Shown: positions 8,698 to 32,500, counted from the stretch's first letter. The stretch: 64,000 nucleotides of DNA from an uncultured Verrucomicrobiae bacterium (GCA_963707025.1 CAVPOM010000004.1:64001-128000), one strand, 5' to 3'. Notes: a model not told the origin generated them from the sequence alone. Numbers and translations are program-made.

Positions 8698-8859
8698 ATG
8701 CAAAAACGAGATTTGAATGAAACCGCCTTCGCGGTGGTCCAGCAGGCGACACGGCAGCCCCAAGCCCCAGCAAAACATCCCATCAGAGCCGTATCAGGCG
8801 AAAGGGTCGGGGCCTTAAAACCCGTCAAGCCCGGCAGAGTGAATCGAAAAGCTCGGTAG
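8698..8859 (+). CDS. Small basic IS-associated protein (53 aa)
   Basis: Manual translation MQKRDLNETAFAVVQQATRQ...KPGRVNRKAR; resembles small proteins recalled beside this IS1 subgroup. Confidence 0.5.
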   Translation: MQKRDLNETAFAVVQQATRQPQAPAKHPIRAVSGERVGALKPVKPGRVNRKAR

Positions 8860-8873
8860 AAGCTCGGTAGATG

Positions 8874-9338: not shown

Positions 9339-9368
9339 AATTCCTTTCGCAAGCGGGAAGGAAAAAGG

Positions 9369-9464
9369 CGCGGACCCAGCGCACCCGAACGAGGCACTGC
9401 GAAGCGCCTTGAGGAGAATGCGCCGAGCCGCGGGTCTCCTCTGAAATTTCGCAGTTTTCGTTCG
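9369..9464 (-). ncRNA. C4-like antisense/leader structured RNA
   Basis: Minus-strand ~17-bp stem with several G-U pairs enclosing hairpin AGGCGC-UUCGCA-GUGCCU; complementary boxes lie upstream and at the imm RBS. Confidence 0.55.
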
Positions 9465-9702
9465 ACCCTTACCGCTACGCTAAAATATCAATCGCAACTT
9501 TTAATCCCCGCTTTTTTTGAGTCAAGAAATTCCCATCAACAAAATGAAACCTCCAAACCTTACAGTCGCGCAAAAAGCCCAAATTCTTGGCGATCCGTTG
9601 CCCGGCGTCACCGGCGATAAATTGCTTGCCGCTGCCGCAATCCGTCAATATCCTCCCATAATCCGCACCAATCCTCGAATTATTAGGCCGCGGTATGACC
9701 GT

Positions 9703-11309: not shown

Positions 11310-11415
11310 AAATCCAAACTGTACCACTACCAAAAACTCGAATCAGTTGATTTGCAACGATTTGGAGGGTATCATGTCTTGAACGCCGACATGAGCGCTG
11401 TTTCACTTTAGCTCT

Positions 11416-12599: not shown

Positions 12600-14153
12600 T
12601 CACTTCAAGACTTGGATTCGCTGGGGACCGGGTTGGGAGGCTTGCACCCGATAGAAGGCTTCAGCGGACAGTGGCGTGGGGTCGGTGAGTGAGATGCCGC
12701 CACCGTTGGTGGCGAGGAGTGCGTCGGCCACCTGCATCCATGCCGGTGGAGTTAGTTGCGCGGCGCGCCACAGCGAGTAGTTCAGGCCGGCGCGGAAGTT
12801 GGCGGACACGATGACGGCGTTGTTGCTCCATTGCAAACAGAAGATATTGGGGAGCGTCGCGGCGGCGGCGGCGGCGGCGGCCCCAAAATCAACGCGGCCC
12901 CAGCCGTAATACTCGTCCCAGCCCGGAGCGCCCAAATCCACGGCGGTATTGGTCAGAATTCCGATGACGTCGCCGGGAGCCAAGGTGGGATTGAAACTGA
13001 ATATCCATGCGACGATGCCGGCGACCAGCGGCGCGGCGAAGCTGCATCCTGTGGCTGTGGCATAGCCGCCGCCGGTGGTAGTGGAGTAAATTTGATAGCC
13101 TGGCGCGGAGAAATCAATGTAGGGGCCGTACAGGGTACCTTGGAAATTGTCGGCGGCGTCGGTCATTGCAACACAGTAAACGTCGGGCTGATTGGGGCCG
13201 TTGAGAAGGCCGCTGCCATCAATGGCGGACATCACCAGGATGCCATTGGCGTTGGTTTTGAGGAAAAGGCCGGCGGCTTCGAGCACCGAGTTGGTGCCGC
13301 CGCTCCAACTGATGTTGACCACGCGCACGCCATTGGTCGCGGCCCAGAGGGTGGCGTTGTACATCTCGCTGATGGCGCCGTTGATGTTGATGGGCAACAC
13401 CTGGCAATTGGCCGTGCCGGCAACGCCGATCCCGTTGTTGATGACGGCCGCGGCCATGCCTGCGCAGAGGGTGGAATGGGCGATGCCGGGACTGGAGGTC
13501 ACCGGCTGGTTTGCAACGACGTCCCAGCCGGCGACGGTGTTGGCAGCGAGGTCCGGATGATCCATTTGAAAGGGTGAATCCACAATGGCCACTTGCACCG
13601 ACGGCAGGCCCAGGCTGTAGTTCCACGCTTGAAAGCTGCCGATGACCCGATGGTGCCATTGGTTGGTTAGCTGCGGATCGTTGGGTGTGAACTCTCGGCG
13701 CTCGAAGGTGTCCAGTTCGGCGAATTCCACATCCGCGCGCCGGCGCAAGGTCTGGACGGCGTCCCACTCACGCAACGGTTCGACGCGCAGAGCCGAAACC
13801 AACGGCTGGCCGCGGAATTTTACGAGGACGATTTCGGGGTTGAAAAACTGGATGGAACCCTGCCCGGTGTCCAGGCGTCCGAAGTGGCGCGCCTGATAAT
13901 TGACGTGCGCCAATGTGTTGGCCTGGGGCAGGGGCACGGCGCGGTCCGCCAAATCCGCCGCGGACAGGCTGGGGAAGGTCGTGAGAGCAGGGATGCGCCG
14001 ACCGGGAATGTCATCCGGCAGCTTGGCGGCAGGCCGGCGCGCCAGGTTACCAGGGAGGCCCAAATCCTCGTCGGAAGCGGAGGAGTAGGACAATTGCGCG
14101 CCCGCGGCGGCGGCGAGCGCCAGGAGCGATGCAAGACAAAGCAGGCCTTTCAC
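12600..14153 (-). CDS. Secreted S8 subtilase (atypical motifs) with C-terminal FYR domain
   Basis: GTG 14153 overlaps upstream TGA; signal peptide; AIVDSP, AHSTLCAG, GCSFAAP; YYGWGRVD; AFYRVQ. Confidence 0.88.
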   Translation of the reverse strand: MKGLLCLASLLALAAAAGAQLSYSSASDEDLGLPGNLARRPAAKLPDDIPGRRIPALTTFPSLSAADLADRAVPLPQANTLAHVNYQARHFGRLDTGQGSIQFFNPEIVLVKFRGQPLVSALRVEPLREWDAVQTLRRRADVEFAELDTFERREFTPNDPQLTNQWHHRVIGSFQAWNYSLGLPSVQVAIVDSPFQMDHPDLAANTVAGWDVVANQPVTSSPGIAHSTLCAGMAAAVINNGIGVAGTANCQVLPININGAISEMYNATLWAATNGVRVVNISWSGGTNSVLEAAGLFLKTNANGILVMSAIDGSGLLNGPNQPDVYCVAMTDAADNFQGTLYGPYIDFSAPGYQIYSTTTGGGYATATGCSFAAPLVAGIVAWIFSFNPTLAPGDVIGILTNTAVDLGAPGWDEYYGWGRVDFGAAAAAAAATLPNIFCLQWSNNAVIVSANFRAGLNYSLWRAAQLTPPAWMQVADALLATNGGGISLTDPTPLSAEAFYRVQASQPGPQRIQVLK

Positions 14154-15799
14154 TGTTTCTTGATGCGGTAAAAGGAGGGTGAACTGGCCCCGAGGTTTGT
14201 GAAAAACTGGAACGAGTTGGTCAGCGTGTAATTTAGCAACGGGAGCCAGGCGATGGTTCCGGAAAGATTCCTCAACGTCTGCAGCGTGTAGTTTGTGCCA
14301 GCCAGTCCAAAAACCAGGAGAGTGAAGTTGGTTCCAGAAAGCGAGCCTTGGAGAATAGGCGGGTCGGCATTGAGGACATAGGCCCGGAAAAAGGCGGCGG
14401 GAGGGGCCGGGACCAAATTGGGAATGGCCTGCATCAGGCCGGACATGGGCACGCTGAGGAAATTGGACCAGCCGCCGGACTGGGCAAGATTGGTCTCCGC
14501 TTGGATTTGGTAGCTCTGGCCCGGGATGCCGTAAAGGACCAGGTTGGGGCTGCCGGCCACAAGCTGCATATCCAGGAGCGGCTGCGGGCCGACGATGACC
14601 GCCCGGCCCGGTTGCAGGGAAAACACCGTGGCAGCGCCCGCGCCGGCGTTGGTGCCTTGCGGCGCCTGCGGCGTCAGCGCCACGAAAGCGGAGGATTGAT
14701 TGGAGGCGGCGGTGAGGTTCAATTGGGCGATTTGTTGGCTGCCTTGAAGGTTCATTCCGGTCGCGGCAGTGAAGGAGAGTTGAACGGTGTTGGACGAAAG
14801 CGCGTTCAACGATGCCGTACTCAAAGCCGGGGTGGCGGCCTGCACAGAGATGGCGGTGAACAAATTGGTGGGGAAGTTCAGCACAAAGGAAAGGCCGGTG
14901 AGCGCGCCCTGGGAGTAGAGTGTGATGGGCGCGGAACCGCTGCCACCCGCCAGCATCACGGCGCCGCCAACAGAAATCGTCGTGGCAAGCGCGCCCAACG
15001 AAACCGAGCCAGCCTGGCCAACGAAAAAGTTGTTTGAAAGAACCAGCGTGTAGGTTTGCATGGGACCGGATGAGGAGGTGCCGACAACGGCGGCCGTGAA
15101 CAATTCGCTGCCAACAGGCGAATAATTGGTGCCGCCCGCGGCGGCGAGCAAGTCGTTGACGTTGAAAAAAGCCTGGTTGGTGGCCGCGCCGTCGCCCACC
15201 ACCGCCGCCAGGACGGAGGAACTGTTGGAGGCGGTGAGAGTAATGATCGAGCCGGGCGGGTTGGCGTCGTTGAGCGTCACCAGCAGTTGCTGCGACTGCA
15301 AAACAAAGGAATTCTCCTGCGCGGTGGCGACCGAGGGCAAAGGCCCGCTCGGAGGCCACACGGCTGACTGGCCGTTGGTATTGGTCACGGTCATCCGGTA
15401 ATAATAGGTTGTGCCCGGGGCGCAGTACGAAACGCGGGCGTAGATCAGCCCCAGGCTCATCGAATCCCGGCGCAAGGCGGCCTGGCTCAAAAGGTCCTGA
15501 TAAGAATTGGCTGCGCTGGGATCGCCGGAGTTCAAGGGATATAACTCGATCCCCACCTGCCCCGCCAGGCTGGCTGTCCCGGCGGGATCGGAAAAAACGG
15601 AAATGGCAACATTGGTCGTGGCCATGATGGCGCGCGAAACCGCCGCCACCAGGGAAAATCCACCGGGGGTGACGTTGACCGCTGCCACGTTCGTCAGAAG
15701 AATTTGCGCGCCGGCGAACCGCAGGCCGAGAAGAAGGCAGGCCAAGCCTGCGCCGAGGCGCGCCGCGCCGCGAATCTTTTGTTTTGACAGCATGGTCAT
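14150..15799 (-). CDS. Secreted FN3/cohesin-like domain protein with two tandem FYR domains
   Basis: ATG 15799 overlaps rhodanese stop; signal peptide; PGTTYYYR; cohesin-like APITL..LTGLSFVLNF; FFRAY and SFYRIKKQ. Confidence 0.75.
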   Translation of the reverse strand: MTMLSKQKIRGAARLGAGLACLLLGLRFAGAQILLTNVAAVNVTPGGFSLVAAVSRAIMATTNVAISVFSDPAGTASLAGQVGIELYPLNSGDPSAANSYQDLLSQAALRRDSMSLGLIYARVSYCAPGTTYYYRMTVTNTNGQSAVWPPSGPLPSVATAQENSFVLQSQQLLVTLNDANPPGSIITLTASNSSSVLAAVVGDGAATNQAFFNVNDLLAAAGGTNYSPVGSELFTAAVVGTSSSGPMQTYTLVLSNNFFVGQAGSVSLGALATTISVGGAVMLAGGSGSAPITLYSQGALTGLSFVLNFPTNLFTAISVQAATPALSTASLNALSSNTVQLSFTAATGMNLQGSQQIAQLNLTAASNQSSAFVALTPQAPQGTNAGAGAATVFSLQPGRAVIVGPQPLLDMQLVAGSPNLVLYGIPGQSYQIQAETNLAQSGGWSNFLSVPMSGLMQAIPNLVPAPPAAFFRAYVLNADPPILQGSLSGTNFTLLVFGLAGTNYTLQTLRNLSGTIAWLPLLNYTLTNSFQFFTNLGASSPSFYRIKKQ

Positions 15800-16612
15800 G
15801 GGCCTGTTTGTCCTCTGGAGGAGAGCGGGTTTTGGCTCCGAATTGTTCCCTGATAGCGAGGGCCGCTGCGTTCCAAACCCGGCCGGCCTTTGCGGGCAAT
15901 GGCCAATTCTCCGCCGGCCAGGACGGCGTAGCGGTGAACGCCCTTGGCCTTCAGGAGGCGGGCTTGCGCTTCGGCGCTTCCGTCCGCGGAATCTATCAGG
16001 ACCACCAGCGGCGCAGCACCCGAACTCACTTCCGTCTGCGTCAAAGCAGTCTCGCTCACGCAGGCCTGGGAATTCGCGGCTCAAGTCCGTCAGTCCGGAG
16101 GAGTTTTTCAGCACCGCCCGGGTCGGTTGGCGCAAATCAACCAGGACAACGTCGCCGGGGTCCATGGCCTGCAATTGGGCGTAGGTGATATAGTTGATGG
16201 CTTCCGGCCTCAGGCCGCGCCCGGCTGTGGTCAGGGCCTGGGCCGACAGCCAGGCGGCATAACCTCCGGATAAAGTATCCACTGTAATGCCGGGCTTCCT
16301 GGCTAGGGCGGCGGCGGCGGTTTGAAGATCCTGATTGCCACTGCGGCCGAGGCCATCGTCATACACCACCACTTTGCCCAGCGGCGGCATATTCTTGACC
16401 GGGCAGAGCGCGGCCGGAATGTTGATGGCGCCCGGGATGTGGTCTTTGGAATAAACACTGGTCTGGCGAATGTCAATGACCATCACCTTGTCCCCCGCGG
16501 CCAGGGCGCGCTGCAAAGCGGCCACGGTCATCGTTCCGGCCTGGAGCGCAAGACTTGGGCAAAGGGCCATTGCGCCCGTCCAACAAATGCAAATTGAAAC
16601 GATGCGGCGCAT
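15796..16612 (-). CDS. Secreted tandem rhodanese-like protein (frameshift near 16060)
   Basis: IDIRQ..Y...HIPGAINIP, LSGGYAAW; second domain VDLR continues in another frame (LVVLIDSADG...VLAGGE) to TGA 15796. Confidence 0.8.
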
Positions 16613-16615
16613 AGG

Positions 16616-19600
16616 CTATGGGGGTTGCGGGGAAAACTGATTCACAGGATTGGCCATGCTCACCATGAGAACGGCCGTGCCGGGAATCGGAAAATCATCC
16701 CCGGCCAGGACTCCGCCCTGGACGAGTGCGACGCGCCAGCGGCCCGATTCTGAATCAAGCATACGAACGGCCAGGGCGTTGCTCAGGCCAAGCTGGCGCA
16801 GGAGCTGGAAGGCGCTGTAGGCGTCCGGAAACGGCGTGTAGCCAAAGACATTGGGCCCGGCGGCCAGGTTGATGGGCGAACTGTTGTTGAGGCCGAGGTC
16901 CAGCACCTGGGAGGTGTTGAACTTGATCCAGAGAAAACTGCCGGCCACGAGACTGAAATTCTGCCCCGAAAACACCCCGGCGGAGACGGACGCCGTTTGC
17001 GTGACCACTTGCGGCACCAGCGAGGCGTATGCGGTGACGGATTGGACGCCGCTGCCCGCCCAAAGAGAGAGCAATCCGTAAGCGTTCTGGGCATACGAAA
17101 CCATGGCAGGAGTGACCAGGACGACATTGCGGTTCTGAAACACCGCTTGGAGCGAGGGCAGCGCGGCGGAGACAATCTGCGATTGATTGCTCACCGTTTC
17201 CTGCCACACCCCCCACCCATCCGCCAGAGACGGGAAGGTCTTCAGGGTGGGCGTGCCGGTCAGGGGGACGGCCAGCAGGCTGGGCAGGTAAATCAACCGG
17301 GCGTTGCCGGTTTGCGGCCCAAGCCCGTCCTGCATGCAAACCAGCCACGGGCCGTCCAGAGTTGGCTGGCTTGCGTTTTGGGCGCCGCTGGTGATGCGGA
17401 TTTCCGCGTTGCGCAAAAGATCGAAGCCATAGATGTCAAGCTCGACATTGCGATTGTCGTCCCAAACGATCCAATTGCCGTAGATCGCGGGGTTGAACTG
17501 CTCGTAAATATTGGTGGTGATGCGCCGCACCTGCTGTGATTGGAGATCACAGAAATAGATTTCTCCCGGACCCTGGTCGCGAAAGTCCTGCCAGACGACG
17601 CGCGCCGCCTGGACTTCAGGATCCAGTTCATCCTGGGTGGATGGGGAGACGGTGAAAATCTGGCCGCTGCTCAGGTTGGTGGCGATGAGCAGCCAGGGAG
17701 TATTGGAGTTCCCGGTGGCGCGGGATTGATAGACCACCCAGGGCCAGTCAATGGCCGGTTTGATTTCATCGGTTGCGGAGGTGCTGGTCAACTGGGTCAG
17801 GCTGTTGGTCGTCTCCATGTCATACATGAAGAGGTCCCAATTGCCGTTGGCTTCCTGCCCCTGCCAGACGACGTAGCGGCCATCGGTGCGGGGGTTTTCC
17901 TGGCTCAATGGAGTGTGGGTCAACTGGGCGATGGATCCGCTGGCGGAAGCGATATCCCGCGCGTAAATCTCCCAGTTGCCATCGCTTTGGTCCTGCCAGA
18001 CGGCCCAACGGCCGCGCGCGCGCGGATTGGCCGGGCCGCGATTGAAGCCGGCGAGCAGACCGGTGTTGCCGGAAAGGTTTCCAACCTGGGCCAACCCGAC
18101 AAAGAAGTTGGTGTTGCCGAGGGTGTCAGCCAGCGTGATGCGAACGGTGTACCAGCCGGGCGGTTCGACAACTCCCCCGTTTCCCAGCCCGTTCCAGTTG
18201 AAGGTGACCGGTCCGGCGCCAATGTTGGTGTAGTCCATTGTCAGAACGTCCGGCAGCGCGCTCTGGTCATAGCCGTAAAGAGGATTCACGGTCCAATCCA
18301 CTGTGGTCGGGACATTGGTGGGTTGATAGACGCCAGCCACTTCGCCCAGCACGCCGATGACGTGCGGGCCGGGGCTGAGGTTGGAAAGAACGAGCGCGGA
18401 GGCGGAGTTGGTGGGAGGGCGGAAGTAGCCGCTGTCAATCGTCCACTCGTAATTTGTGACCGATGCGCCGCCGATCATCAATTGGGCGGAAGTCCCCGCC
18501 GCGGGTGTGGCGGGCGCGCCGGCAATGGTGGCGGGCGGAGCCGCCGGACTGACGACCCAGCTTGCCGTTACCGCGTCGCTGGCGGCCAAATAGGTCCCAT
18601 AGCGCGAGCGGCCCAAAACGGCAACCGTGTTGGTGCCTGCCGGAAGGCCCGACAACGACAACGGCGTGGAAACCGTCGTTTCGGCGCTCCAAGGGCTGCC
18701 GTTTAATTGGTACATGTAGAAGTCAACGTTCTGTCCGGCGATGTTCAGCGCGGCCGTCGTGCTGGCAGTGGGCGAAGAAGGAGTGTTGGAGATGGTGGCC
18801 CAGCCGGTCACGCCCTGGAAGATGCCAATCTGCGCGTTGACAGCGTTGGGGTTGGGCGCGGCCTGGAAAGTGATCGGGACGCTGCCCGGGCGGATGGAAA
18901 GGGCGTTGCCGGGATTGACGACGGGCTGGGATGGCACCAGGGCGGAGGAGAAGCCGAGCGAACCCGGGCCGGGCAGAACGAGCGTGGCGGTGTGAGTGCC
19001 TTCCTGGTTCAAACTGGTGTCAATCGCATAGTAGGACAGTTCGTAGGAGCCTGGAGTGCTCAGACTGAAAGGCAGAGCGGGTGCAAACGGAGCGCCGCCC
19101 AGGCTGTCGTAAATGGTCACCGGCACGGCGTCCTGCGAAAGGAAGTACATTTGCGTCTGGGGTGTGACGTAATAAATGCCATTGGTATAAGTGGATGCGC
19201 CGGCAAACATCAGCGTTGTCACCGGCGCGTTGGTGCTGGCCGGAGGATTGGTATAGGTGATGGTGTAGGTGTAGGTCCCCAGGTTGACCAAATCGAAAAG
19301 GTTCAGGTAAGTGTCCTTGAAGTTGCTCACCGGTTCGTAATGGAGGCTGGTCCAAAAATTATTCGTATTCAGCGCCTTGCCATCCGAACGCACCACGCTG
19401 GCGATGGGAAGCTTGGCCTGGTTGGGATCGTTGAGCCGCAGGTAGCCCCAGCCGGAAACCGTCGCATTGAGGCTTACCTGGCAGGTTAAGCCCGAGCCTG
19501 AAACCGAGGCATTGGTCAGCATGTTGACCGGATAAACCCCTCCCTGGCTTTCGTAGAGCGAGTCCGGGATGAGATTGTCAATGGCGTCCAGAGTCCCGGT

Positions 19601-20584
19601 GGTATCGGCCAGAAAATCGCGGATGCTGTCCCGTCCCAGCTGGTCGTCCAGAACCTCATGGAGGAAGAGACAGGCGTTGACCGACTTGATCAGCGAGGTC
19701 TCAGCGCCGCCCAAAGCCGTCGAGTGGCTGTAGGTCGCGCTCACGGACAGGAAGGTCCCCGACAGAGTGACCACCATGTCCCAGGCGCCCTTGGTGGCCT
19801 GGCCGGGCGACAAATTGCCGAGATTGACCGTGAGGTTGGCGTTGGAAAGCGGCGAATCATTGACCCGGGAACCGAGCAGTTGGGCGACGAGCGGCAGATT
19901 CTGCACATTGGAGGCAATCTTGGGCTGCTGGGCGTTGATGAATACGTTTCTGGCCACACCATAGCCGGCATTTTGCACCAGCACGCCAAAGGTAAATGGA
20001 ATCGGAGCACCCAATCCTGTGTAAGGATCCATGCCGGTGACATCGCGCGGCTGGAAGTAGGTGATTTGTAATTGCGCGTCCGGAAGCACCGTGATGGGGG
20101 CTGGAATGACCACCAGCGAGGAAGCCGGGATGGGCGTGCCGTTGATTTGCCCGCCGACGTTGGCGCCGACCTGGTAAAGAAGGCCGCCGGGGGAAGTTCC
20201 CCCGGCGTTGACCGTGGGGATCAGGAACCAGGTAATAGTCGCCGTTTGTCCTGGCGCAATGACTCCCGCGCCGCTGACGTCGGAAATGTTTTGCAGGGTC
20301 GGCGGCTGCACAAAAAAGAGGCTGGAAGAATCATTGACAGTCCCGTTGGTCGAAAGAGCGGCATTCTGGAAAGTCAGATTGGCCGAAAAGCCGGTGATAG
20401 GGTTGTTGGGATCGTTGTCCGTAATCTGCATGGTGGCTTGAAAGCCGGTCTGCTCCAGCGTCAACTGCTGGGAGAGCACAATTTGAACGGGGGCGCACAG
20501 GCCTTGAAATTGTTCCTGTGCCAGGGCCGGCCGGGCCGGAAGGCCGGCGCAGAGGATCGCCAGAAATGACTTCCAGCGGTTCAT
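16616..20584 (-). CDS. Large secreted Ig-like/FlgD-like/beta-propeller repeat protein
   Basis: Signal peptide, then QEQFQGLCAPVQIVLSQQLTLEQ; FNWNG...PPGWYTVRI; repeated VWQD..GNWEIY propeller blades. Confidence 0.85.
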   Translation of the reverse strand: MNRWKSFLAILCAGLPARPALAQEQFQGLCAPVQIVLSQQLTLEQTGFQATMQITDNDPNNPITGFSANLTFQNAALSTNGTVNDSSSLFFVQPPTLQNISDVSGAGVIAPGQTATITWFLIPTVNAGGTSPGGLLYQVGANVGGQINGTPIPASSLVVIPAPITVLPDAQLQITYFQPRDVTGMDPYTGLGAPIPFTFGVLVQNAGYGVARNVFINAQQPKIASNVQNLPLVAQLLGSRVNDSPLSNANLTVNLGNLSPGQATKGAWDMVVTLSGTFLSVSATYSHSTALGGAETSLIKSVNACLFLHEVLDDQLGRDSIRDFLADTTGTLDAIDNLIPDSLYESQGGVYPVNMLTNASVSGSGLTCQVSLNATVSGWGYLRLNDPNQAKLPIASVVRSDGKALNTNNFWTSLHYEPVSNFKDTYLNLFDLVNLGTYTYTITYTNPPASTNAPVTTLMFAGASTYTNGIYYVTPQTQMYFLSQDAVPVTIYDSLGGAPFAPALPFSLSTPGSYELSYYAIDTSLNQEGTHTATLVLPGPGSLGFSSALVPSQPVVNPGNALSIRPGSVPITFQAAPNPNAVNAQIGIFQGVTGWATISNTPSSPTASTTAALNIAGQNVDFYMYQLNGSPWSAETTVSTPLSLSGLPAGTNTVAVLGRSRYGTYLAASDAVTASWVVSPAAPPATIAGAPATPAAGTSAQLMIGGASVTNYEWTIDSGYFRPPTNSASALVLSNLSPGPHVIGVLGEVAGVYQPTNVPTTVDWTVNPLYGYDQSALPDVLTMDYTNIGAGPVTFNWNGLGNGGVVEPPGWYTVRITLADTLGNTNFFVGLAQVGNLSGNTGLLAGFNRGPANPRARGRWAVWQDQSDGNWEIYARDIASASGSIAQLTHTPLSQENPRTDGRYVVWQGQEANGNWDLFMYDMETTNSLTQLTSTSATDEIKPAIDWPWVVYQSRATGNSNTPWLLIATNLSSGQIFTVSPSTQDELDPEVQAARVVWQDFRDQGPGEIYFCDLQSQQVRRITTNIYEQFNPAIYGNWIVWDDNRNVELDIYGFDLLRNAEIRITSGAQNASQPTLDGPWLVCMQDGLGPQTGNARLIYLPSLLAVPLTGTPTLKTFPSLADGWGVWQETVSNQSQIVSAALPSLQAVFQNRNVVLVTPAMVSYAQNAYGLLSLWAGSGVQSVTAYASLVPQVVTQTASVSAGVFSGQNFSLVAGSFLWIKFNTSQVLDLGLNNSSPINLAAGPNVFGYTPFPDAYSAFQLLRQLGLSNALAVRMLDSESGRWRVALVQGGVLAGDDFPIPGTAVLMVSMANPVNQFSPQPP

Positions 20585-23500
20585 TTGGGCACCTCCGCAG
20601 TTCGAATTGGGACATCCAGTGGCAGCGGGCCAGGCCCACACTTATCATGCACCAGCACGTTATTGGCGTAAAATGCGTTATCGAGTGCAAGCCCCAAAGT
20701 AAACATCTCTCTGCCGCCCGATAATACACGGTTTCCGGTCACTTCGAGGCGCTGTCCGTGGGAGTTAAAGAGCCAGTCCCCCGCTTTCAAATCGGCCGCC
20801 CGTCTCCAGCCTTTGCCATCCACCCAGAACTGGTGCTCGATCGTGGCTGTCACCGCTGGCGCAGGCTCGCCGCGCGCTGTGGTCAGTTGGATTTCACGCG
20901 CGTCCGAAGAAACCACGGAGCGGACTTCCCTGACAATGGCAACATTCTGCGGGCGCTCCCCGCTGCGAACCATGTCGTTGGTTTTGACTTCGGCAATCGG
21001 TTTGCTGGTGCCGTCAGCCATCAAGACCAGCGTTTCGGGATCCAGACAACCGCCGCCCGTGACGGAGAAACCCGGACCGGATTGAGGCGCGCTGGGGGGA
21101 TTGGGCAGATTGGGTATGGGATAGTTGAGGCCGGAGCCCAGACCGAGGGCCACGGTTTGAAAACCCAGGAACATGCCTTGGATGACGCAGCCCTCCAGCC
21201 CGCCGCTTAATCCCCCGTTGGGTCCAATATCGAGCAAGGAACTGATCAGCACAGCGCCGTTGGCGGTGATGTTGACCTCGTTTTGCGTCACCGGGCAGAT
21301 GCCGCCGCCGTTCAAAATGGCATTCAGTTCATCCGCATAGGCGTTGGGGTTTGAGCTCGTGCCCAGGCAGGTTTGGAACCCGCTTTGCTGCCGGGTTGGA
21401 TCACTGGTGCCTGTATAGGTGACGGTGAAAGGAACATCCACCGTCTGTTGCGGAAGCAGCACCGGAATGAAGGTGATCAGGGGTTGATAACTGGCGGTTT
21501 CGTCCTGTTGTCCGCTGATGGTGACATTGGTCATTTGCACCAGGCCTTGATTTTGCACGGTGACGGTGTAGGTGGCTTGGAATCCGGGGGTCACATTTTC
21601 AAATGTCTGCAAGACCGGTGTTACCACCAGCACCGGCAAGGGCACGAAGGTTTGATAGTTTTCCGTCACTGCGATCGTGTAGTTATCCGAGAACGCCACC
21701 GGGACAACGGTAAAGTTGATGGTCACCAGGCTGCGATTAAGGCTGACCGCCTGGGAAACGGTTTGATCGGCGGTAATCGTCACAAGGCCCGCATTGGCCG
21801 AGCATCCGGGCGCCGATGCCTGCCAGCTCCAGGCCCCTTCCATCAGGTTGCTCACTGTGCAATAACCATTGCTGTCGGTCAGGAACGGCCCTTCGCTGGC
21901 TGAAATCAGGCTGTTGTTCAAGCGGATGCTCGCCCCCGACAAAGCCGTGCCCAGAATATCATTGACATAAAACTGCACGGCGCCGGTCAGGTCTGAAGTC
22001 ACGATGGCGGCCACGCTCACCGGAAAAGGCACTGACAGGTTTGTTCCTTGGATGGTCACCGTGTCCTGGTAAAAGGCCAGTGGCGTCGAGGAGGGCGGAT
22101 TGAAGACGACACCAAAAGTGAAGGTTTGACCGGGAGCCAGGTCGGGCAGTTGAATCAGGCCGTTGCTCGAAACGGGCAAATTGACCTGCATCCAGGCATA
22201 GTTGGTCGGCGGGAGCAAGGTCACACCCTGCAAACTGTTCAACCCGTGGTTGGCCATGGTGATTTGCCCGCTGACCTGCTCGCCCCGGTTCACATTGACT
22301 TCCAAGTAGCCGACGGCCGGCTGGGTGACGGCCAAAACCGGAACCGCCGGCAGCAGACTGACCGTCCCGGTGAACGTCGTCGTGGCCCCCTCGGCGGAAG
22401 CAAAGGTAAAGACCACCTGGGCCGAATTGGGCGCGTCGCTCGTGGCCGCCAATTCCAGATTAACAGTCAGCGATTGATTGGGGGCAATGGTCAGACTGGA
22501 GCTTGTGAGATTTGTCCCCGTGATTTTGGCCAGTGGAACCAGATTGGTGCCGGAGACTTCATACGCCGCAAAGCTGGTGCTGACAGCCGTCAACGACATG
22601 TTTCCCGGATTGAACACTTGCACCGAGAAGCTGAGGGTGCCATTTTTCGACATGACAATGTCACCCGACGAAGGGGTTGCGTAAAGGCGGTCAATCTCAA
22701 CCATCGCCTGGTTTAATTGATCAACGACCAGCGGGTTGGCCGCCCACAAGCTCAAGGTTCCTCCAAAGCCGGGCGGCGGGTTGTAGGTGTAAGCGTAATT
22801 GCCGTTGCTGTCGGTCGTAACAGGCTGATCCCAGACATAGCCGCGGGTGGCAAAACCGAGGTTCAAAGCCGCGTTGGGCGCGGGTAGCCCGCTTGAATAG
22901 TAGATGGCCTGGCCGCTAATGAGGACCGGCTCGTCATTGTCATAAATGAGCTTGTCTGTTTGCGCCGTTCCGTAATAGGGCGTCTCCGCCAGGCTGGAAA
23001 TCATGCTGCCGGTTAAGGGTCCGGATTGGGTTTGGCTGCTGGTGCCGATTTGATTATAGATGGCGCTGGCGACCGCGACAAAGGCGGTGTTGGTGGCTCC
23101 GGTCAGCGCGAGCGGCGCCAGAACATTGGGCACGGTCAAACTCAGGGAGGAGCCTGCCGGAATATCCACGTAGCCCGTGCCGTCGGCCAGGAACACCGTC
23201 CCGGCGGGAGCACCTTCGAAGCTGGTGCGGCTGACTTCCTGCCCAAGGTTGTTTTGGACAGAAATATATACATCGCCAGGTTGTGCCCCAAAACCCCTCG
23301 CCACAATCACCTGCATGTCCACCCAGGCCTGGTTAAAAATCTGGACTTGAATCGGCGACATTCCACCCGCCAAAGGGAGTTGGTTGGCGGAAACCGCGAT
23401 TTCAAGGCCCGGCAACTGGCTGTTGGTCACGCTGAACGTCTGTTGATAGGTTACCACCGCCCCTTCGCTCTCCGCCTGTTGGGAGACGCTGATTTGAATC

Positions 23501-26500
23501 GTCTGCGCGGCCACAACGTTGGCTTCGGGCACGACGACGGACAGTTGCTGGCTGGCGCCGGCGTTGATGGAAACGGTCCATGCGTTGGTCACCGTCAGCG
23601 GCGATGCGCCTGCCGCTGAACGAGTCAGCGTCAACTGCGCCAGCGGCAGCGCGGCCCTGGAACTCAGGTTCGTCAGACCTATCTGGAATTGGTCGAAGTA
23701 GGCGGTCAGCACCGGATGACTCGTCCCGCCCCCATTGGGATTGACCAAAAGGCCCAACGATACGGGATAAACCGAAACCACGCGTTGCGGACCTTCCTGT
23801 CCGCTGCCATTGACGGTGCTGACGCCATACTGGACGACGTCCGTCATCGGCAGGCTGTCCGTGTAGGTCAGCAAGGAGAGCAGCGACGTGTTTTGTTTGA
23901 CGCCGTTCCGATAGACGTTGAATCCGACCACCGTGGAATCCGACGAGGTCCAGTTTAAAACGGGAGCCTGTGACGGGACAACCAAGGCCGAAAGGTTGCT
24001 GACCGGGCCGACCAAAAGTTGAATTGCGGCTGGAGCACTTGGGTTCTCGTTGCCGATGGCGTCGGACGCGGCAACGATGTAGGTGCTGGTGCCGCGCGGC
24101 GGATAGTCTATGACGGGCTGCACGCTCGAAACCGTCTGGATCAGCGAACCGTTGCGGTAGATGTTGTAATGATCGGGGACTTCTCCCGACGGTTCCTGCC
24201 AGATGATTTGGACGCCGGCGGCGGCCAGTTGCACCTGCACGTTGGTGGGCGCGGGCGGCGGGGTGCGGTCTGACAAAGCAACGACGACGTTGGAGATGGC
24301 GCTCTCTGATCCGAGGCGGCTGGCGCTGATGCCATAGCTATACAGTCCGTCGGTCGGCGGCAGGTCGGTCACAGTGGTGGAACTGAGGTTGTCAAGGTCG
24401 AGCGTGGCCGGAGTCGTGAAATTGCTGCCCGGCTCACGGTAGAGCCGGTAAATCTGGGCGCTTCCGACGGCATTCCAGGAAAGCGCGACAAAGCCGCCGG
24501 GAAAGCTCGTGACCGCGAGGTTGGTGGGCGATGGCGGCGGCGAGGGAAAAGTGGTATTGTAGAGCTCCAGCCGCGCCCCAACGGTGATATTGGTGCCGAC
24601 ATTCCCGACGCTGTCCTGGGAACTGAAAGCAAAATTGCCGAACCCAGAGCCCATGGCCGCCGTCAGTGGGAGATTCGCAGTCCAATTGGTGCCGCTGCCA
24701 GTCAACGAAAGAATCACATCGGTTCCTTGAGGCGGCGCAAATGACAGGCTGGGCGTCGTCCCTTGCGCCGGAGGTTTGGTCAGCGTGAGATTTACGGCCA
24801 CCGTGGCGCCGCTGATGGTTTGGACCGGGCCCGGCGGAGCGGCCACGATGACAGCGGAAGGCGGCGTGGTATCAATGACCAGCAGCGTCCCGGAAGGCGC
24901 GCCGCTAAAAACATTGCCGGCCTGATCCTGGGCGGTGGCGAAGACCGCGGCGACTCCGGAAGGCGTCGAGGCGGTAACCGCGAAAGCGGACTGCCAGGTG
25001 TTGAGCGCCACGTTGGTCAGCGCGAGCAAGGCAGGCGAAGGTGCGCCGTTCGGCTGGATGGTCAGGGCAGGTGCCGCCGCCAGGGCCTTGCTGGAGGCCA
25101 CCGTGATGCCCACAGTGCCGACGCCGACCGGGGAAGGCGAACCGTAGGCGATGCTGATGCCCGGCGGAGTCGCGTCATAGACAATCGAGACCAGGCTGGA
25201 AAGCGGGCTGGGGTTGCCCGGCGGCATCGTATCCAACGACGCCGAAATAGTAGGTTCCGTTCGCCAGGCCCTGGGCCGTGTAGGACATGGCTGTCAAAGA
25301 AATCGAATGGCCGGTGGCCTGGCTGACAGTGGAGAACGGGGCATTGGCCCAGAACAATTGGAACGTGGCCGCCTGTTTGCCCGGCGGCGCAAACTGCCAG
25401 GCCAGATTGATTCCGGTGCCGGGAACATAGACGGGCTTATTCATGACCAGCGCCGCCGGCGGAATGGTTTCCACCGTGACTTGCCGCGCCTGCGACGAAG
25501 TTTGTCCCGTGCTGTCCGAAGCGACGGCGATAATCGGGTTGACGCCTTCGGTCAATGTGACGTTGGACAGGCTGAAATACCCGGAACTGTCCGCCGTCGT
25601 CGTTCCCAAAACCTGGCCGCTGTCAGTCACCTGGATGCCAATGTTCGCTTCGGCCGTGCCGGCGATGCTGATGTTGTCATTATTGGTGACATAATTGGAA
25701 GCCGGCATGGCAATGACCGGCGCCAGGGGCGGTGTCACGGCTACCACCACGTCTTCCTCAAGGGTGGCGATGTTGCCGGCGGCGTCGCGAGCGAGCAATT
25801 CGACTTGATGGACGGCGTTGTTCAGTGGCCGCACGTCGAAGTAGCAGGAGAAGCTGCCGCCCGTGTTGGTGGCCACACCGGCCCCGTCCACGTAAAACTC
25901 AATATCCTGCATTCCAAGGACCGCCGTGGCCGAGCCTGTGACCGTCACGGGCCGGTGCAACGTCTCACCCTCCGAGAGGCTGAACGACTGGATGACCGGG
26001 CCGGCGGTGATATAGTTGACATCCACTTCGACCGGGCTGTTGGTTTCGCCTGTGACGCTGCGGAATTGGGCGAAAATGTGCTTGAAGCCGGCCCCGGCGG
26101 AGAGCGGGAAAACGGTGTAATTGGAGAAGGCGGTAAAGAAGACGTTGCTGAACGTGAAATCTTCGCTCAGGCGCATCGCCGTGGCGGTGCGGCAGGCCAG
26201 TTGCAGGACGACGGAGCGGGCGCCGACTTGGGTAACGCCGTTGGACGCGCCGATGGCTGGGGTGAGCACCGGCTCGTAAGACAGAAACGGCGAGTAGGAG
26301 ACATTGCCGGCCAAGAGTGGCGTCAAACTGCCTTGCGCGGCGGTGCCCCACCAATTGGAAGAAGCGTTCAGAACAGCGCCGCCGGCAGCCCAGGCATTGG
26401 TTTGATTGTTCTGGATGACTGATCCCTCGAGGTTCAACGCTGCGGTGTCGGACTGCCGCACGCCGGTCTGGTTGCCCGAAAACAAGGCGCTGACGGTGGT

Positions 26501-29500
26501 CAGGGTTGCGCCGTTTTCCAGGAGCAGACCGGACGGGGTGTTGAAATTGGCCGTCAACGCCTGGACGGACGGGGCGCAGCCGTTAATCGTCAGCCCGGTG
26601 CCGTAGAGGATCTCAACAAACTGCAGACTGGAGGATCCGGCCCCGCTGCCGAGCGTGACCCCGCCCCAATCGCCGGGCGCGGGCAGGCCGCCGGAAACGT
26701 CCTTTGCCGAATCGAATATTATCGGCGCGAGGCCCGTGCCGTTGGCCGCCAGGCTTCCCTGGGCCACCGTCAGGCTCGTCCCCGGGGCGAAAAGCAAGGT
26801 GGTGCCGGGCTGAATGGTGAGCGTGGCATTACTGACCACAACCATGCTCTGATAAATGGGCACCACGACGGGCGCGCTGCCGCCTATGGTGGTGTTGACA
26901 CTGAGCGTGCCCGCGTAGGGATCGGTCCAGGCCTCGGTGGAGACGTTGGGGTTGAAGTTGTTGGCCGCGTTGAATCCGACGACTGCAAAATAATTGGTCT
27001 TGGTGCGGTCAAGACCATTGACTTGGAACGACGTTTGCGTCGGTCCCAAGGTGGCTTGCGGCGTCAGACCGGCCGCGGACGTGAAGTTGGCTTGCTGGTA
27101 ATAGACATAGAAGCCGGCGAAGCCGAGCAAGCCCGCCGTGCTGTAGCCATTCCAGGAAACAAGGGCGGAGGAGGCACCCACCGACGACACGGCAATGCTG
27201 ACCGCCGGCGGGAGGGAACTGGGCAAAATGATTTCCAGCGGCGTCAGTGTCGAAAGGCTGTTGCCGGCGGTATCCACCGCCTGCACCGCCGCGTAATAAG
27301 GAGTATCGAGCGACAGGCCGTTGAATTGCCAGCTTCTCGCTGCGGAGCCTAACCCTGTCAGGATAGGAAGCCCGGCCGCCGACGTGTAATTGGTCGTCTG
27401 AAGATAGACGTGGAATCCGGCCAAATCCGCCGGCGCATTGTAGCTGCTCCAGCCCACAGTGATGGACGAACTGTTGGACGCCACCAGCGTCAAGAGAGGA
27501 TTGGGCGGCGGAGTGGCCTCAACGGTGAACTGCGCCGCATTGGTCAAAGCCATGGTGTTGCCGTTGGTGTCCTGCGCGCCGGATACGTATAGTTGCATGA
27601 TGCCATCCATGCCGGGCGCAATCGTGACGGGCGGCGTGGAATAAGTATCGTTGTTCAGGACGGTGGCCGACCAGAAGCCACCGGCGGGCACGGCCGGCTG
27701 GATCGCGGCGGCGCTGTTGGTCAGGACCACCAGGGGCGAAACATTGGTTTGCATCGAGCGGTCGAACTGAAGGCGGACAACAAAATTGGTCGTGGATGGG
27801 ACAAGCGGAGAATAATTGACGCTGACGCTGGCCAGGATCGGCAGGATGCTCTTGCCGGCATAGACGGCCACGTATTCCAGGTTGGTGGGATCCAGCGTGG
27901 ATAAAGTCTTGGTGAAAGGATCGGCAAAACTGGCCGGCGTGTTGCTCAGAGCAAACTGCTGGAACGTGAAGACATCCGGTGCGTTGGTGACCAGGAGCGG
28001 CGCGCTGAAACTGGCGGTCTGGCCGTTCGTGTAGGTTCCCGCGCCCGCCACCAAGGCCAGCCCCGGCGGCGAAGTGGCGGTGGTGACAACATGGATCAGA
28101 TTGGCGGCGGCGTAATTGGCTACGAAGGTGTGGCTGGCAAAAATTACGCTGGTGAGCGCGGGGCTGGTGCCCACAATGACCGCGCCTTCCGTCCAATTGG
28201 AGAAGCTGTAGCCGAAACCCGGATAGGCGGTCAGCACGTTGGTCGTGCCATAGGAAAAAGATCCGGCGCCCACAACGGTTCCAGCCCCGGGCGGATTGTT
28301 GCTGACCGCAATGCTGAAGACGGGCAGGACAAAGTTCGCCACCAGGTCGCGATCACGGGTCGCGGTGAAGGCGTAGGTTGCATTGGCGCTTTGGAAAACG
28401 CCATTCTCCGTCCAAGTGGAGAAGCTATAGGGGAGCGTACTCGTGTTCGCTGAAGCGGTGAGCGTGATCAGGCTGCCCGCCAAAAACACCCCGCCACCCG
28501 CCGCCGAACCGCCACCTGGCGGGCTGGCCGTCACCGTGATGGTGTAGCTTTGGCTGGTGAAGGGCTGCACGGCGAAGTTGGCCGTTTGGTTGGAATTGTT
28601 CACAACCACCTGCTGCGCCGGCACCGTGTTGTAACCGCGCGCCACCAAACCTTGAACGCCAACGGTCCAGACTCCGTTGGTGACGTTCAACACGTAATTG
28701 CCGCCGGCATCCGTGACCGTGCTGAGGTATATGGAGGTGTTGAGATTGGTCAGGATGGCGAAGACCGTAATGTTGGTCACAGGAGCGCCCTGGTTGTTCG
28801 TGACCGAGCCGGTGATTTGCGCCGTGGCCCCGCCGGTGGAAATCGCGGTCAGCGACACTCCGCCGGCCGCGTAGTTGAGCAGCCAGCCGAGGTTGTTGCC
28901 CGGCAATGGAAGGTTGAGGGAATCGAACGCGTTTGTAAGAGCGCCGCACGAGATCAGCGGAATCGCGTCACCCGCGTTCGGCATGTAGCCGTTCAACAGG
29001 CTCACGTCCAGGGTGCCGTCAAGGCTCAGATTGCCGTTGACGATCAGCGGAGCGGGTTGCCCCGCGCCGCCGATGCCGAAATCCAATGTCGCGCCCGTTT
29101 GGGCGTAGCCATTGGCCATGCTGAAGTCAATCACGCCAGTCAAAATCTCCAAATCGCCGGCGTTGACGCATGAAACGGAAATGGAGGTCGTGCCTGTGCT
29201 GGCGGACTTTTCCAACGTGCCCACGTTGTGGAAATAGGCGTTGGTGGTGGAATAAAAGTTGATCATGCTCTGGTCGCACTGGATGCCCCACACGGCTCCC
29301 GCCAGGTTTTCCACCGCTCCGGCGTAGGGCGTATTGGTGTTGTTGAACACATACACGGTTCCACCCAGCCAGTTCACCGTCCCCGCGTTGGTCAGCGGGT
29401 TCTCCAAATACACCGTCCCACCGCCGTTAATGTTCAGCACCGCGTTGCTGGCGATGGCCAGGGGCCCGTTTGCAGTCCCCCCGGTCCAATTGACCAAAGC

Positions 29501-32500
29501 CCCTGCCGCTTCGCTCACACTGCCCGAAATTGTCCCCCCGCTCCAGTTGAACGTCCCTCCGCTCAACACTTGCAAGGCGCCCGACACGCCGCCCCCGCAA
29601 TTGAGAAGGCCGCTGACCGTGTAGTTGCCAGCCAGGGCCACCGCACCCAGAGTGAGGTTGGTGATGGCGCCCCCTTGAAAATTCGCGCCCAGACTCACGG
29701 TGCCGCCGGTCATTTGCAGATTCGGTATCGTGTTGTCGAGCAGCGTGAGCGTGCCGCCGGTGAATTCAATCGTTCCAGGCCCAGTCAAGGTTGGCGGCGT
29801 GCCATAACGGAAGGCGCCGCCCGAAAAGTTGATCTCCGCCCCGCTGGCCGCCGAGAACGCGCCTTCCATGGTGCCGCCACCTTCGAAATTCAACATGCCT
29901 TGGTTGGCGGCTACGGTTCCCGCATTGTCAAGGGCCACCGAAATGGTGGTCGTGCCCGTGGCCGCGGACTTTTGCAACGTGCCCAGGTTGTGAAAATAGG
30001 CGTTGGTGGTGGAATAAAAGTTGATCATGCTCTGGTCGCACTGGATGTCCCACAAGGCTCCAGCCAGGTTTTCCACCGCTCCAGCGTAGGGCGTGTTGGT
30101 GTTGTTGAACACATACACGGTTCCACCCAGCCAATTCACCGTCCCCGCGTTGGTCAGCGGGTTGTCCAAATACACCGTCCCACTGCCGTTAATGTTCAGC
30201 ACCGCGTTGCTGGCGAGGCTCGTGGGACAACCCACGGTTCCACCGGTAAAATTAAAATTACTGTAAACCGTCAAGCCTCCGATGCCATTGACCGTCCCAG
30301 AACTCAGGTTCAGGAAAGCAACGCTGGCACTGTTCGTCAGGGTTGCGGTGCCGCCGTTCGTGACGTTCACAGTATCATACAGGGACGGCACTCCCGCTGG
30401 ATTCCAGTTGCCCGGTGTAAACCAGTCGCTGGAGACGCCGCCCACCCAAAAGAAATTCGTGCCTGGATGGATGTTGGAATAAACACTGATGCTCACCGGG
30501 ATGGATATGGCCGTCGCTCCCGCGGCATCCGTGGCCTTGGCTGTCAACGAGTAAAAGCCAGGAACCACATTGTTCCAAGTAAAGCTGTAGGGGCTGGACA
30601 AGCTTTGGCCCAGCTTGTTGGTTCCCTGGAAGAACTCCACTTTGACAACTGCGGCGTTGGTGTCGGTAGACGTGGCGTTGATCGTGATATTCACCGGCAC
30701 CACGAAACCCTCTCCGTTCGTGGGGCTGGTGATGCTGACATTGGGCGCGGCATAATTGGTCGCCAGCAGGATCAAAGAACTGGCCCCGTAGTTGAGTTGC
30801 CAGGACAGTCCTTCCGTCGGCAGGCTGACATTGGCAAAGGCGCCGCTTTCCGCCGCGTAGGTCAGAATGGTGAAGGAATTGCTCACGGCCGGCACGTATC
30901 CGCCGTTCAAGGTGACCAGAAGAGTCCCTGCTTGCGCCAGGTCCAACGCCGTGCTTTCGTTCCAGGCGAAGGTGCCGAAATCAGTCGAGCTGTTGAGGCC
31001 GACACTCAGAGTTTCCGAAGACTCCAAACTCAAGTGAGCGCCTCCCAACCGCAGCGTCCCATGCTGGGCGCTCAAGGTCGCCGCGTTGGTAAAATTGTCC
31101 ACACTGATCGTGCTGGTATTGTTGGTGCTGAATGCACTGATCGTCCCCTGGTTCACCAGATAATCAAACCCACTTTCGCCCATGATCCCGGCCGCGCTGA
31201 TGAGGTTGATCACCCCTCCCGCCAGATTGACCAACCCCCCGTCCTGACCGGCCGTGTTGTTGTTGTAAACATAGAACCCCTCGTTGGTCATGGAGCACGT
31301 CCCGGAATTGGTCATGGGAGACCACAAGTACAAATAAGCGCTGGAGGCCGCGCTCATCTGCGCCCCGCTTTGCAGCCACAGCCAGCAATTGGTGTTGCCG
31401 GCATAGCCGTTCTGGCCAAGGTCGGAACTGGAACCCGCCAGCAGCATCTGCCCGCCATTCTTCACCGTCACCTGCGCCTCCATGGCCACCCCGTTGACAC
31501 TGAGCACCGCCCCGCTGGCCACCACGAATGACCCGGACAGCGTGCCATTGGTCGCGACCAGCGTCCCCGTCACCGGCAGCGTGTTGGATAGGCTGCTTCC
31601 GTCCACCGTTAAATTGGTGATGGCCCCGCCTTGAAAACCCGGCCCCAACACCACCGTCCCGCCAGCATACTCCAGATGGGCAATCGGGTTGTCCGCCAGG
31701 GTGAGCACACCGGTGGTAAATTGATACTGGCCGCCACCGCCCAGCGTCAGACCCGCACCCGCGCTCGTGCCCGGACTGGCGCTGGCCCCGAATTGGATCG
31801 TCGTCCCCGCCGCCGCACTGAAATTGCCTGTCAGCGAGCCCAACCCGCTGAAAGACTCGATCCGCAAAGTACCCGCCCCCGCCAGCGTGGCCACCGCGCC
31901 CGGGTTGGTCAATTGGTCCATGCTGATGGTGCTGCTCCCGGCGGAAACATTGATCGTCCCCTGGTTCACCAGATAATCAAACCCACTTTCGCCCATGATC
32001 CCGGCCGCGCTGATGAGGTTGATCACCCCTCCCGCCAGATTGACCAACCCCCCGTCCTGACCGGCCGTGTTGTTGTTGTAAACATAGAACCCCTCGTTGG
32101 TCATGTAGCACGTCCCGGAATTGGTCATGGGAGACCACAAGTACAAATAAGCGCTGGAGGCCGCGCTCATCTGCGCCCCGCTTTGCAGCCACAGCCAGCA
32201 ATTGGTGTTGCCGGCATAGCCGTTCTGGCCAATGCTGGAACTGGAACCCGCCAGCAGCATCTGCCCGCCATTCTCCACCGTTACCTGCGCCTCCATAGCC
32301 ACCCCGTTCACACTAAGCACCGCCCCGTCAGCCACAAGGAAAGACCCGGACAGGATGCCATTAGTCGCAACGAGCGTCCCCGTCACCGGCAGCGTGTTGG
32401 AAAGGGTGCTTCCGTCCACCGTTAAATTGGTGATGGCCCCGCCTTGAAAACCCGGCCCCAACACCACCGTCCCGCCAGCATACTCCAGATGGGCAATCGG

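Follow-up and report, generated by a model that had tools for sequence, protein, structure and literature searches.

In the 64,000-nucleotide stretch of DNA analysed here, from an uncultured Verrucomicrobiae bacterium (GCA_963707025.1, CAVPOM010000004.1:64001-128000; hereafter the window), a minus-strand run of overlapping genes encodes a giant protein (A), a partner protein (B), a rhodanese-like protein, a further protein (C) and a subtilase. A ends in a Hint domain that belongs to a real and conserved class, apparently previously undescribed, in which B is the next gene. As judged from its residues, the class Hint has a Hedgehog-like layout (C1/C143), in which thioester formation would be kept and C-terminal cleavage lost. 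We tentatively propose that it passes the C-terminus of A, by acyl transfer, to an external acceptor other than B.

The terminal Hint domain and its class

The C-terminus of A reads TGGG|CLDPET...TIEH...VLVHD-K-C-G, followed by a short tail. The key residues are Cys1 (21048-21046), Thr69 (20844), His72 (20835), a terminal His134-Asp135 pair (20649-20644) and Cys137 (20640-20638); the stop codon, at 20581, lies 20 residues past the terminal Asp. The block-F His is lost, and position F:4 is occupied by Thr. A preliminary description of this DNA had reported a terminal Hint ending in HD rather than HN, with an intact G|C start, a block-B TxxH, a VHD-K-C end and a short tail, and all of these features were seen. 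No toxin or immunity gene was found downstream of the Hint in the window, again as described: the next gene is B, whose ATG overlaps the stop codon of A (ATGA). The predicted fold of the domain matched the gp41-1 intein (Foldseek E-value of 4e-10, target-normalised TM score of 0.84), with target-normalised TM scores of 0.80 to 2LWY and 0.71 to 1AT0. In a profile comparison, its terminal Asp aligned with the N143A position of Tetrahymena BIL2. The domain scored 23.9 bits against Pfam PT-HINT (cut-off of 27.7), and the Hint of a relative, L133, scored 28.8 bits. Overall, sequence and predicted structure both identify the end of A as a Hint fold.

Species genomes and metagenomes were searched with a profile built from 11 Hints, and 80 of 199 and 80 of 129 confirmed loci, respectively, were taken. 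Among these 160 Hint loci, 114 formed one class, with B as the next gene in 112 of them; the other two end within 165 bases. The 46 non-class loci (36 with at least 2 kb downstream) contained neither B nor the domain that precedes the class Hint (hereafter pre), and mostly corresponded to ordinary HN Hints with C-terminal domains of about 100 residues. The six class loci without Cys1 were all cut by a contig edge. By record title, class carriers were mostly Verrucomicrobiota, including Opitutia, plus Kiritimatiellota; a few others may be mis-binned. Members of Pontiellaceae and Opitutales are among those with the operon. A B-anchored search, which overlaps the Hint-anchored set and is not independent of it, gave a Hint upstream in 20 out of the 20 top-scoring B loci fetched. 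Moreover, a paralogous operon was found on the same contig as the window (G000:C4:533527-559117), with an intact A of 5,759 codons ending in VHD-L-C. Together, this paralogue and the 114-locus class indicate that an operon in which A ends in a Hint did not arise by chance.

In 98 distinct class Hints, Cys1, His72 and a Cys two positions past the terminal residue (Cys+2, which is Cys137 in the window) were invariant, while Thr69 was present in 96 and Gly+3 in 95. The invariance of Cys+2 had not been part of the preliminary description. The terminal residue was Asp (89), His (6) or Glu (3), never Asn, which was found in 42 out of 45 more distant Hints. The residues that help C-terminal cleavage in Hints are the block-F His, the penultimate His and this Asn (PMC4031507). 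Compared with the 45 other Hints, these helpers had decayed together in the class: the block-F His was kept in 12 of 98 versus 34 of 45, and the penultimate His in 68 of 98, being otherwise Arg, Glu, Gln or Ser (30 of 98), versus 44 of 45. By contrast, the Cys at the +2 column was found in only 10 of the 45 distant Hints. The +1 residue of the class was Leu (49), Ser (12), Met (12), Arg (7) or others, and never Cys. Deep members, two sets of them named from Dadabacteria and Deltaproteobacteria and one clustered with a Gammaproteobacteria record, ended in HQ, RQ or YQ followed by x-C, which suggests that the terminal residue is free and the Cys fixed. The HN end with a toxin, which the preliminary description had suggested looking for in close homologues, was observed in none of the 98.

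Ratios of nonsynonymous to synonymous substitution rates (dN/dS), calculated from 29 close pairs, were 0.10 for the N-terminal module of B (Bn), 0.12 for pre, 0.21 for the Hint, 0.24 for the payload between pre and Hint, and 0.44 for the tail; on these sequence data, the Hint is under purifying selection. Tails were 16-40 amino acids (aa) long; a conserved tail length as a functional signal was considered and rejected, the tail overlapping the ribosome-binding site of B. All trees were midpoint-rooted, with no one-clade test. In the Hint tree, 26 class rows were set apart from 43 canonical rows by a branch supported at 98/97, and two long-branch HD Hints fell among the class rows. Small stand-alone Hint open reading frames (ORFs) at L200 and L201, which end in HD-E-N with a tail of 20-25 residues and have no Cys+2, are on long branches within the class in this tree.

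Upstream of the Hint, pre was found in all 93 class loci whose upstream sequence spans 300 aa or more; its hairpin was of low confidence in a partner-free fold prediction. An isolated pre fragment, 89% identical to that of the window, was also observed beside transposase-like sequence at G000:C12:304388-304846. The payload, which had no Pfam or ESM Atlas match, was variable between members, moderately hydrophobic and usually contained three Cys; 38 of 87 payloads included a 19-residue window with a mean hydropathy of at least 1.6. The tether that follows it had a median of 60% Gly, Ser and Pro.

Partner genes and the wider pre/Bn family

The operon order A, B, Cys-less rhodanese, C is fixed and, from the gene overlaps, translationally coupled, with an ATGA or GTGA overlap of A and B in 72 of 80 loci. 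In B, a signal peptide is followed by QEQFQGL-C-APV (mature Gln1 at 20518, Cys8 at 20497). The arm before this Cys had a fixed length of seven residues in class B proteins, with the class-specific motif Gln-x-Gln-x-x-Gly-x-Cys (Gln1 in 93, Gln3 in 95 and Gly6 in 96 of 97), and was of low confidence in the predicted fold of B alone; in free B proteins, encoded as separate chains outside the class, it mostly comprised about four variable residues. The Cys, which the preliminary description had proposed as a possible target of ligation, was conserved in 97 of 97 class B proteins. It was also found in 130 of 130 free-B representatives outside the class and in 24 of 29 proteins in which pre and Bn are fused. 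This equal invariance in non-class free B implies that the Cys did not arise as an acceptor for the Hint. It is often the sole Cys of Bn, with no obvious partner by Cys parity in 22 of the 24 fused proteins; parity counts did not identify its partner in B, where Cys8 was retained even when the payload has two Cys only. In a crude scan for signal peptides, Gln stood at +1 more often than any other residue (122 out of 490), and the genome encodes a glutaminyl cyclase. Glutaminyl cyclases block N-terminal Gln, and Gln1 of B is probably pyroglutamate; the alpha-amine of B was rejected as an acceptor for this reason.

Bn corresponded to no Pfam or NCBIfam family. It comprises 2,789 clusters at 50% identity, the ESM Atlas clusters being unnamed; one of the latter is half eukaryotic. 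Fold searches returned generic beta-sandwich matches only (best Z of 8.2, root-mean-square deviation of 2.6, 101 residues aligned). Pairwise identity ranged from 0.46 to 0.88 for the Hint versus 0.78 to 0.97 for Bn. A complex prediction of Hint, Bn and rhodanese from L133 (score 0.18, mark 0.32) was used neither for nor against any interaction.

The rhodanese, which is an addition to the preliminary description, followed B in 85 of the 86 class loci whose flank was 1.5 kb or longer, and its family was found in none of 29 other loci. In a sample of 401 genomes of the phylum, with at most seven candidates scored per genome, it occurred, besides G000, in exactly the four genomes that have class B, next to B. 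Its first active-site loop reads Y-[D/G]-[D/E]-G, with a Cys one place earlier in 8 of 60, and its second carries Asp in 60 of 60, so that by sequence neither loop has the catalytic Cys. A role as persulfide donor for a C-terminal thiocarboxylate was rejected on this basis. The window copy is frameshifted near 16058, whereas those of the paralogue and relatives are intact. Gene C was present in 63 of the 67 class loci that reach 3 kb or more past B. The C-terminal half of its product is similar to the C-terminal ends of fused homologues, and C is likely an anchoring subunit. Of 59 class loci extending 5 kb or more beyond B, only 14 carried the subtilase, and a necessary role for it in trimming was rejected.

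Three layouts combine pre and Bn: giants in which pre, payload and Bn are fused and no Hint is present, an RHS-type A with a separate B, and the Hint class. The fused homologues without Hint, which the preliminary description had mentioned, do exist (29 ORFs); in 13 of the first 20 regions fetched, pre and the N-domain of B were in one ORF with no Hint. No fetched protein carried a Hint between pre and Bn, or a Hint together with Bn, in a single ORF. Across the family (P0004-P0153, L020-L052), pre and Bn surround variable Cys-rich payloads or RHS cores. Two giants with two pre domains each, one fused to Bn through a very short linker, were also observed (L253, G767:C68; L255, G803:C53), the former being followed by a separate B gene. 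RHS-type A proteins had either a canonical HN Hint with toxin and immunity gene (G376) or no Hint seen, and free B adjoined RHS proteins of both kinds, which indicates that A and B are built as separate chains without the class Hint. At the G376 locus (L037:2-15006), the RHS protein has a canonical HN Hint and ends like a toxin; after it come a probable immunity gene, a B that ends in a dockerin and a PEP-CTERM-like gene, a layout that suggests that B tethers A to the cell surface.

The Bn tree was built by a quick method from 112 selected rows (30 of 110 class rows and 35 sampled free-B representatives among them). The class formed a long, fully supported branch among free-B proteins, and 25 of 27 fused rows lay beyond another fully supported branch (SH-aLRT, Shimodaira-Hasegawa-like approximate likelihood ratio test, of 100). 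The simplest history would be descent from a split toxin-type system that lost its RHS and toxin parts and had its Hint re-tuned, rather than fission of a fused gene. Among 301 genomes of another phylum, two were positive, with fused and free forms only. In three free-B loci, a secreted Transglut_core gene lies directly upstream of B (L041:5820-8149, L042:5863-8063, L049:6348-7562), preceded in two of them by a gene for DUF1573 plus a Cys-less rhodanese. No Transglut_core gene was seen in 144 class loci read to about 6 kb past B, and of the six genomes carrying this subfamily four are free-B and none class.

Possible fates of a proposed Hint thioester

Because Cys1, Thr69 and His72 are invariant, a thioester is likely to form at Cys1; C-terminal cleavage by the class Hint appears unlikely from its residues. 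That the thioester would pass to some acceptor other than water, B included, we judge slightly more probable than not. In the transfer to a non-B acceptor that we tentatively prefer, the Gly-rich tether would, after export, be joined at its end to Cys1 by a thioester. Acyl transfer to Cys137 would follow, giving a branched thioester, or a Cys1-Cys137 disulfide would be held until reduction. With no Asn for resolution in cis, an outside nucleophile would attack the thioester, releasing the Hint and leaving the C-terminus of A covalently capped. As acceptor we conjecture a small molecule, an envelope molecule or an amine of some adjacent surface. The Cys-less rhodanese might protect the thioester or bring the acceptor to it, thereby standing in for the sterol-recognition region of Hedgehog. 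B would hold A through pre and Bn, non-covalently or by a disulfide, and would tether it to the cell through C. Hedgehog processing depends on C143, which takes part in a branched thioester and can also pair with C1 in a disulfide (PMC12054796); by analogy, Cys137 may have the role of C143, an outside nucleophile resolving the thioester. Economy also favours acyl transfer, as hydrolytic removal of a terminal domain would yield no more than a stop codon does. Transglut_core, upstream of B in the three free-B sister loci, is another thioester-type enzyme. The fuller proposal is a bacterial Hedgehog counterpart split over an operon, in which an A of 4,000-6,800 residues carries a branched Cys+2 thioester, a dead rhodanese recognises the acceptor in trans, and A becomes fixed to an envelope lipid, B or another cell without ATP or sortase; this we hold as possible but doubtful.

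Several observations weigh against acyl transfer to an outside acceptor. The residue at -1 varies, with Pro in 2 and Val in 5 of 96, and in inteins Pro at -1 blocks the N-S shift. The class Cys is at +2, whereas C143 of Hedgehog is described as equivalent to +1, and there is no sterol-recognition region, only a short variable tail. Position 46, numbered by position rather than by superposition, is Asp in only 16 of 98, and F:4 is Thr or Ser; a class-specific Asp123 (87 of 98) could substitute for Asp46. The Hint surface changes faster than pre or Bn, a poor fit with a large conserved docking surface. Cys+2 may simply be inherited, given that a Cys at +1 or +2 occurs in 26 of the 45 ordinary toxin Hints. 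Two free-B loci where no Hint was seen encode, close to B, a fusion of DUF1573 with a distantly related Cys-less rhodanese; the class rhodanese may accordingly serve B or secretion rather than the Hint. Finally, the link of the transglutaminase to acyl transfer comes from three loci and is a lead only.

B itself could instead receive the acyl group in trans, through its Cys8 thiol, through a Lys or through an N-terminal Cys that trimming would expose, so that A and B become one covalent chain, as in the fused homologues. The translational coupling of A and B, the fused proteins that unite pre, payload and Bn without a Hint, the fixed arm of class B, and a Cys that is often alone and unpaired all agree with such a route, and trans conjugation has a precedent in Tetrahymena BIL2, which makes isopeptides (PMC8616854). 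We nevertheless consider it unlikely: the Cys is family-wide, the Bn tree separates fused from free and class forms, A and B also occur as split systems whose Hint is canonical or missing, and no fetched ORF has both Hint and Bn. Moreover, the subtilase is optional, Gln1 is likely pyroglutamate, and an internal Cys would give a labile thioester only. The preliminary description was right to single out the Hint as special, and its comparison with Hedgehog gains from the constancy of Cys+2 and from the loss of the block-F His, penultimate His and Asn. Its proposed route of ligation to B, perhaps after trimming by the subtilase exposes the Cys, is weakened and probably too specific; the envelope molecule that it named as an alternative acceptor is among those conjectured above. 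Another possibility, which we rate as somewhat unlikely rather than remote, is that the Hint only cleaves: it would cap the hydrophobic payload, or act as its chaperone, and then come off when the thioester is hydrolysed, as a removable pro-domain does. Bacterial intein-like (BIL) domains give mainly cleavage products (PMC4031507, PMC7765530), many payloads contain hydrophobic helices, and neither the variable -1 residue nor the fast-evolving Hint surface would need a specific acceptor. By itself, however, cleavage explains neither why Cys+2 is invariant nor the almost perfect association with the rhodanese, and fused and RHS-type relatives carry comparable payloads without a Hint.

Alternatively, the Hint may be parked as a structural or binding module by stable disulfides (Cys1-Cys137, or Cys137 with Cys8 of B) in an oxidising envelope. 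Both A and B have signal peptides, the C1-C143 disulfide of Hedgehog is documented (PMC12054796), Pro or Val stands at -1 in 7 of 96, and Cys8 of B is kept in loci with a two-Cys payload. The retention of the N-S shift residues Thr69 (96 of 98) and His72 (98 of 98) speaks against this reading, which we find quite improbable. Splicing in cis by Asp cyclisation, which would append a short Cys-containing tail to A, has some basis: splicing is possible for inteins whose last residue is Asp, Gln or Glu (PMC4031507), and in type A BILs ligation proceeds through aminolysis in the absence of a +1 nucleophile. It is very improbable here, with a terminal His in 6 and a penultimate Arg, Glu, Gln or Ser in 30 of 98, the block-F His mostly lost, and a tail that is the least constrained part. 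Toxin ancestry is plausible in view of the sister RHS toxins, for one of which (G376) a canonical HN Hint, a toxin and an immunity gene adjoin B; that the domain is a decaying relic of a polymorphic toxin that lost its toxin is nonetheless largely refuted, and we give it almost no credence. The catalytic residues are invariant across several classes of the phylum, the Hint dN/dS is 0.21, the operon is fixed, and every B-anchored locus of the overlapping set had a Hint upstream. Acyl transfer to an acceptor other than B remains the reading that we put forward, tentatively.

Locus layout, related Hint systems and meaning

Features of the operon in the window (all coordinates in window positions)
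Feature	Position	Strand	Description
Gene A, N-terminal part	25175..33622	-	2815-aa ORF; signal-peptide-like start, repeated passenger-like units, Ig and fn3 domains
Gene A, C-terminal part	20581..25236	-	About 1550 aa; Ig/fn3, carboxypeptidase-regulatory-like, pre, payload, tether, Hint, tail
pre domain	21406..21735	-	VTINFTVVP...YQTFVP hairpin and beta-sandwich; common to fused and RHS-type relatives
Payload and tether	21049..21405	-	Variable payload, then Gly/Ser/Pro-rich tether ending at the putative scissile G|C
Hint domain	20644..21048	-	Cys1, Thr69, His72; terminal His134-Asp135 replaces His-Asn
Tail of A	20581..20643	-	Lys136, invariant Cys137, Gly138, then variable stretch over the ribosome-binding site and start of B
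Gene B	16616..20584	-	1322 aa; signal peptide, Bn, Ig repeats, FlgD-like Ig, beta-propeller
Bn region of B	20518-19205	-	About 430 aa, three beta-sandwich domains
Tandem rhodanese-like protein, secreted	15796..16612	-	Asp/Gly for catalytic Cys in both active-site loops
Gene C	14150..15799	-	About 550 aa, signal peptide, no Pfam match
Subtilase (Peptidase_S8), secreted	12600..14153	-	Optional operon member

The whole of gene A (33622-20581, about 4,350 aa) is broken by one frameshift, a one-base insertion near 25217. The inserted base is absent from one independent contig of run X1 (weak evidence, at a depth of 2.6), and in L133, 82% identical in the C-terminal part, A is one ORF; the frameshift is probably an assembly error. 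One-base frameshifts at 25217 (A), at about 16058 (rhodanese) and at about G000:C4 540400 (paralogous B) suggest indel errors of the assembly. The Ig/fn3 content of A suggests an adhesin. GDSL lipase and GH92 genes lie upstream of A on the same strand (33961-37071), with no sign of operon membership. Beyond the operon, a mobile-element-like stretch (6885-12486) includes a weak Rep-like ORF (6885-8288), a proteasome-subunit-like ORF (9517-10476), an IS1-like transposase (10458-11309) and a candidate ORF, probably a transposase or integrase (11617-12486).

Among known systems, the best sequence family was PT-HINT or type A BIL (PF07591; Clostridium thermocellum BIL 2LWY; PDB 8W20 chain A), matched by 59 of 60 class members at E<=0.01. 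The class shares with it Cys1, a TxEHxFW-type block B, a hydrophobic segment before the Hint and RHS-toxin sister loci, and by sequence most plausibly descends from it. Unlike this family, however, the class has no His-Asn end, has mostly lost the block-F His, lacks toxin and immunity genes, and has a 16-40 residue tail with an invariant Cys+2; with neither toxin nor immunity gene, it is, on sequence grounds, no polymorphic toxin system. Like the Hog part of Hedgehog, A is a secreted-type precursor with a C-terminal Hint that carries C1, T69 and H72 under the same numbers, matches 1AT0 in fold and has no terminal Asn; the second invariant Cys at its end, C137, may be a counterpart of C143. It differs from Hog in having no sterol-recognition region or conserved D46, in its Cys at +2, in a sequence nearer to PT-HINT and BIL, and in a bacterial operon with three partner genes. 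The class Hint would thus work most like the Hedgehog Hint without being a Hog domain.

The top PDB profile match of the class Hint was BIL2 of Tetrahymena BUBL (6TMM/6Y75; E-value of 4e-18), which also has Gly at -1 and is reported to conjugate its N-extein to other proteins (PMC8616854); unlike the class, BIL2 has retained its terminal Asn, which is mutated in the structures (N143A), and lies between ubiquitin-like domains. Type B BILs (Hint_2, PF13403) are without the intein block-G Asn and cleave without coupled splicing (PMC4031507, PMC7765530), whereas block G of the class aligns with BIL2 and 2LWY to the last residue, and 21 of 60 members match Hint_2 at E<=0.01. Pfam Vint, a eukaryotic family, was matched by 55 of 60 at the same threshold. 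Unlike a class 1 intein, the class Hint is terminal rather than inserted in a conserved host protein, and its +1 residue is never Cys. Alpha-2-macroglobulin-family proteins with a mid-protein Hint (GGG|C...HN-x-KG where seen) were also observed (P0329, P0331, P0336, P0345), one such protein being from Candidatus Nomurabacteria.

C-terminal Hint-like domains with an upstream Cys have been described in secreted proteins of myxobacteria and gammaproteobacteria (Burglin 2008, PMC2362128; also Dassa and Pietrokovski). The string "Verrucomicrobi" is absent from the main text of PMC2362128, whose alignments (additional files 16 and 17) may overlap the class, and "rhodanese" is absent from the first 300,000 characters of the polymorphic-toxin survey PMC3482391. 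A literature search, with most subscription papers outside its reach, found no description of a Hint-B-rhodanese operon.

Bacterial BILs have been described as cleaving or splicing (PMC4031507, PMC7765530), whereas Hedgehog and a ciliate BIL are documented as passing a Hint thioester on to an outside acceptor, which is cholesterol in Hedgehog. If the class Hint only hydrolyses its thioester, the finding shrinks to a conserved pro-domain. The analysis also outlines a large family with no Pfam name, built in fused, RHS-toxin or Hint versions. If the proposed transfer is true, it would represent a new way to anchor or cross-link bacterial surface proteins, a possible ligation tool, and a small model of how Hedgehog chemistry may arise from toxin-type Hints, through loss of the Asn and fixation of a second Cys.

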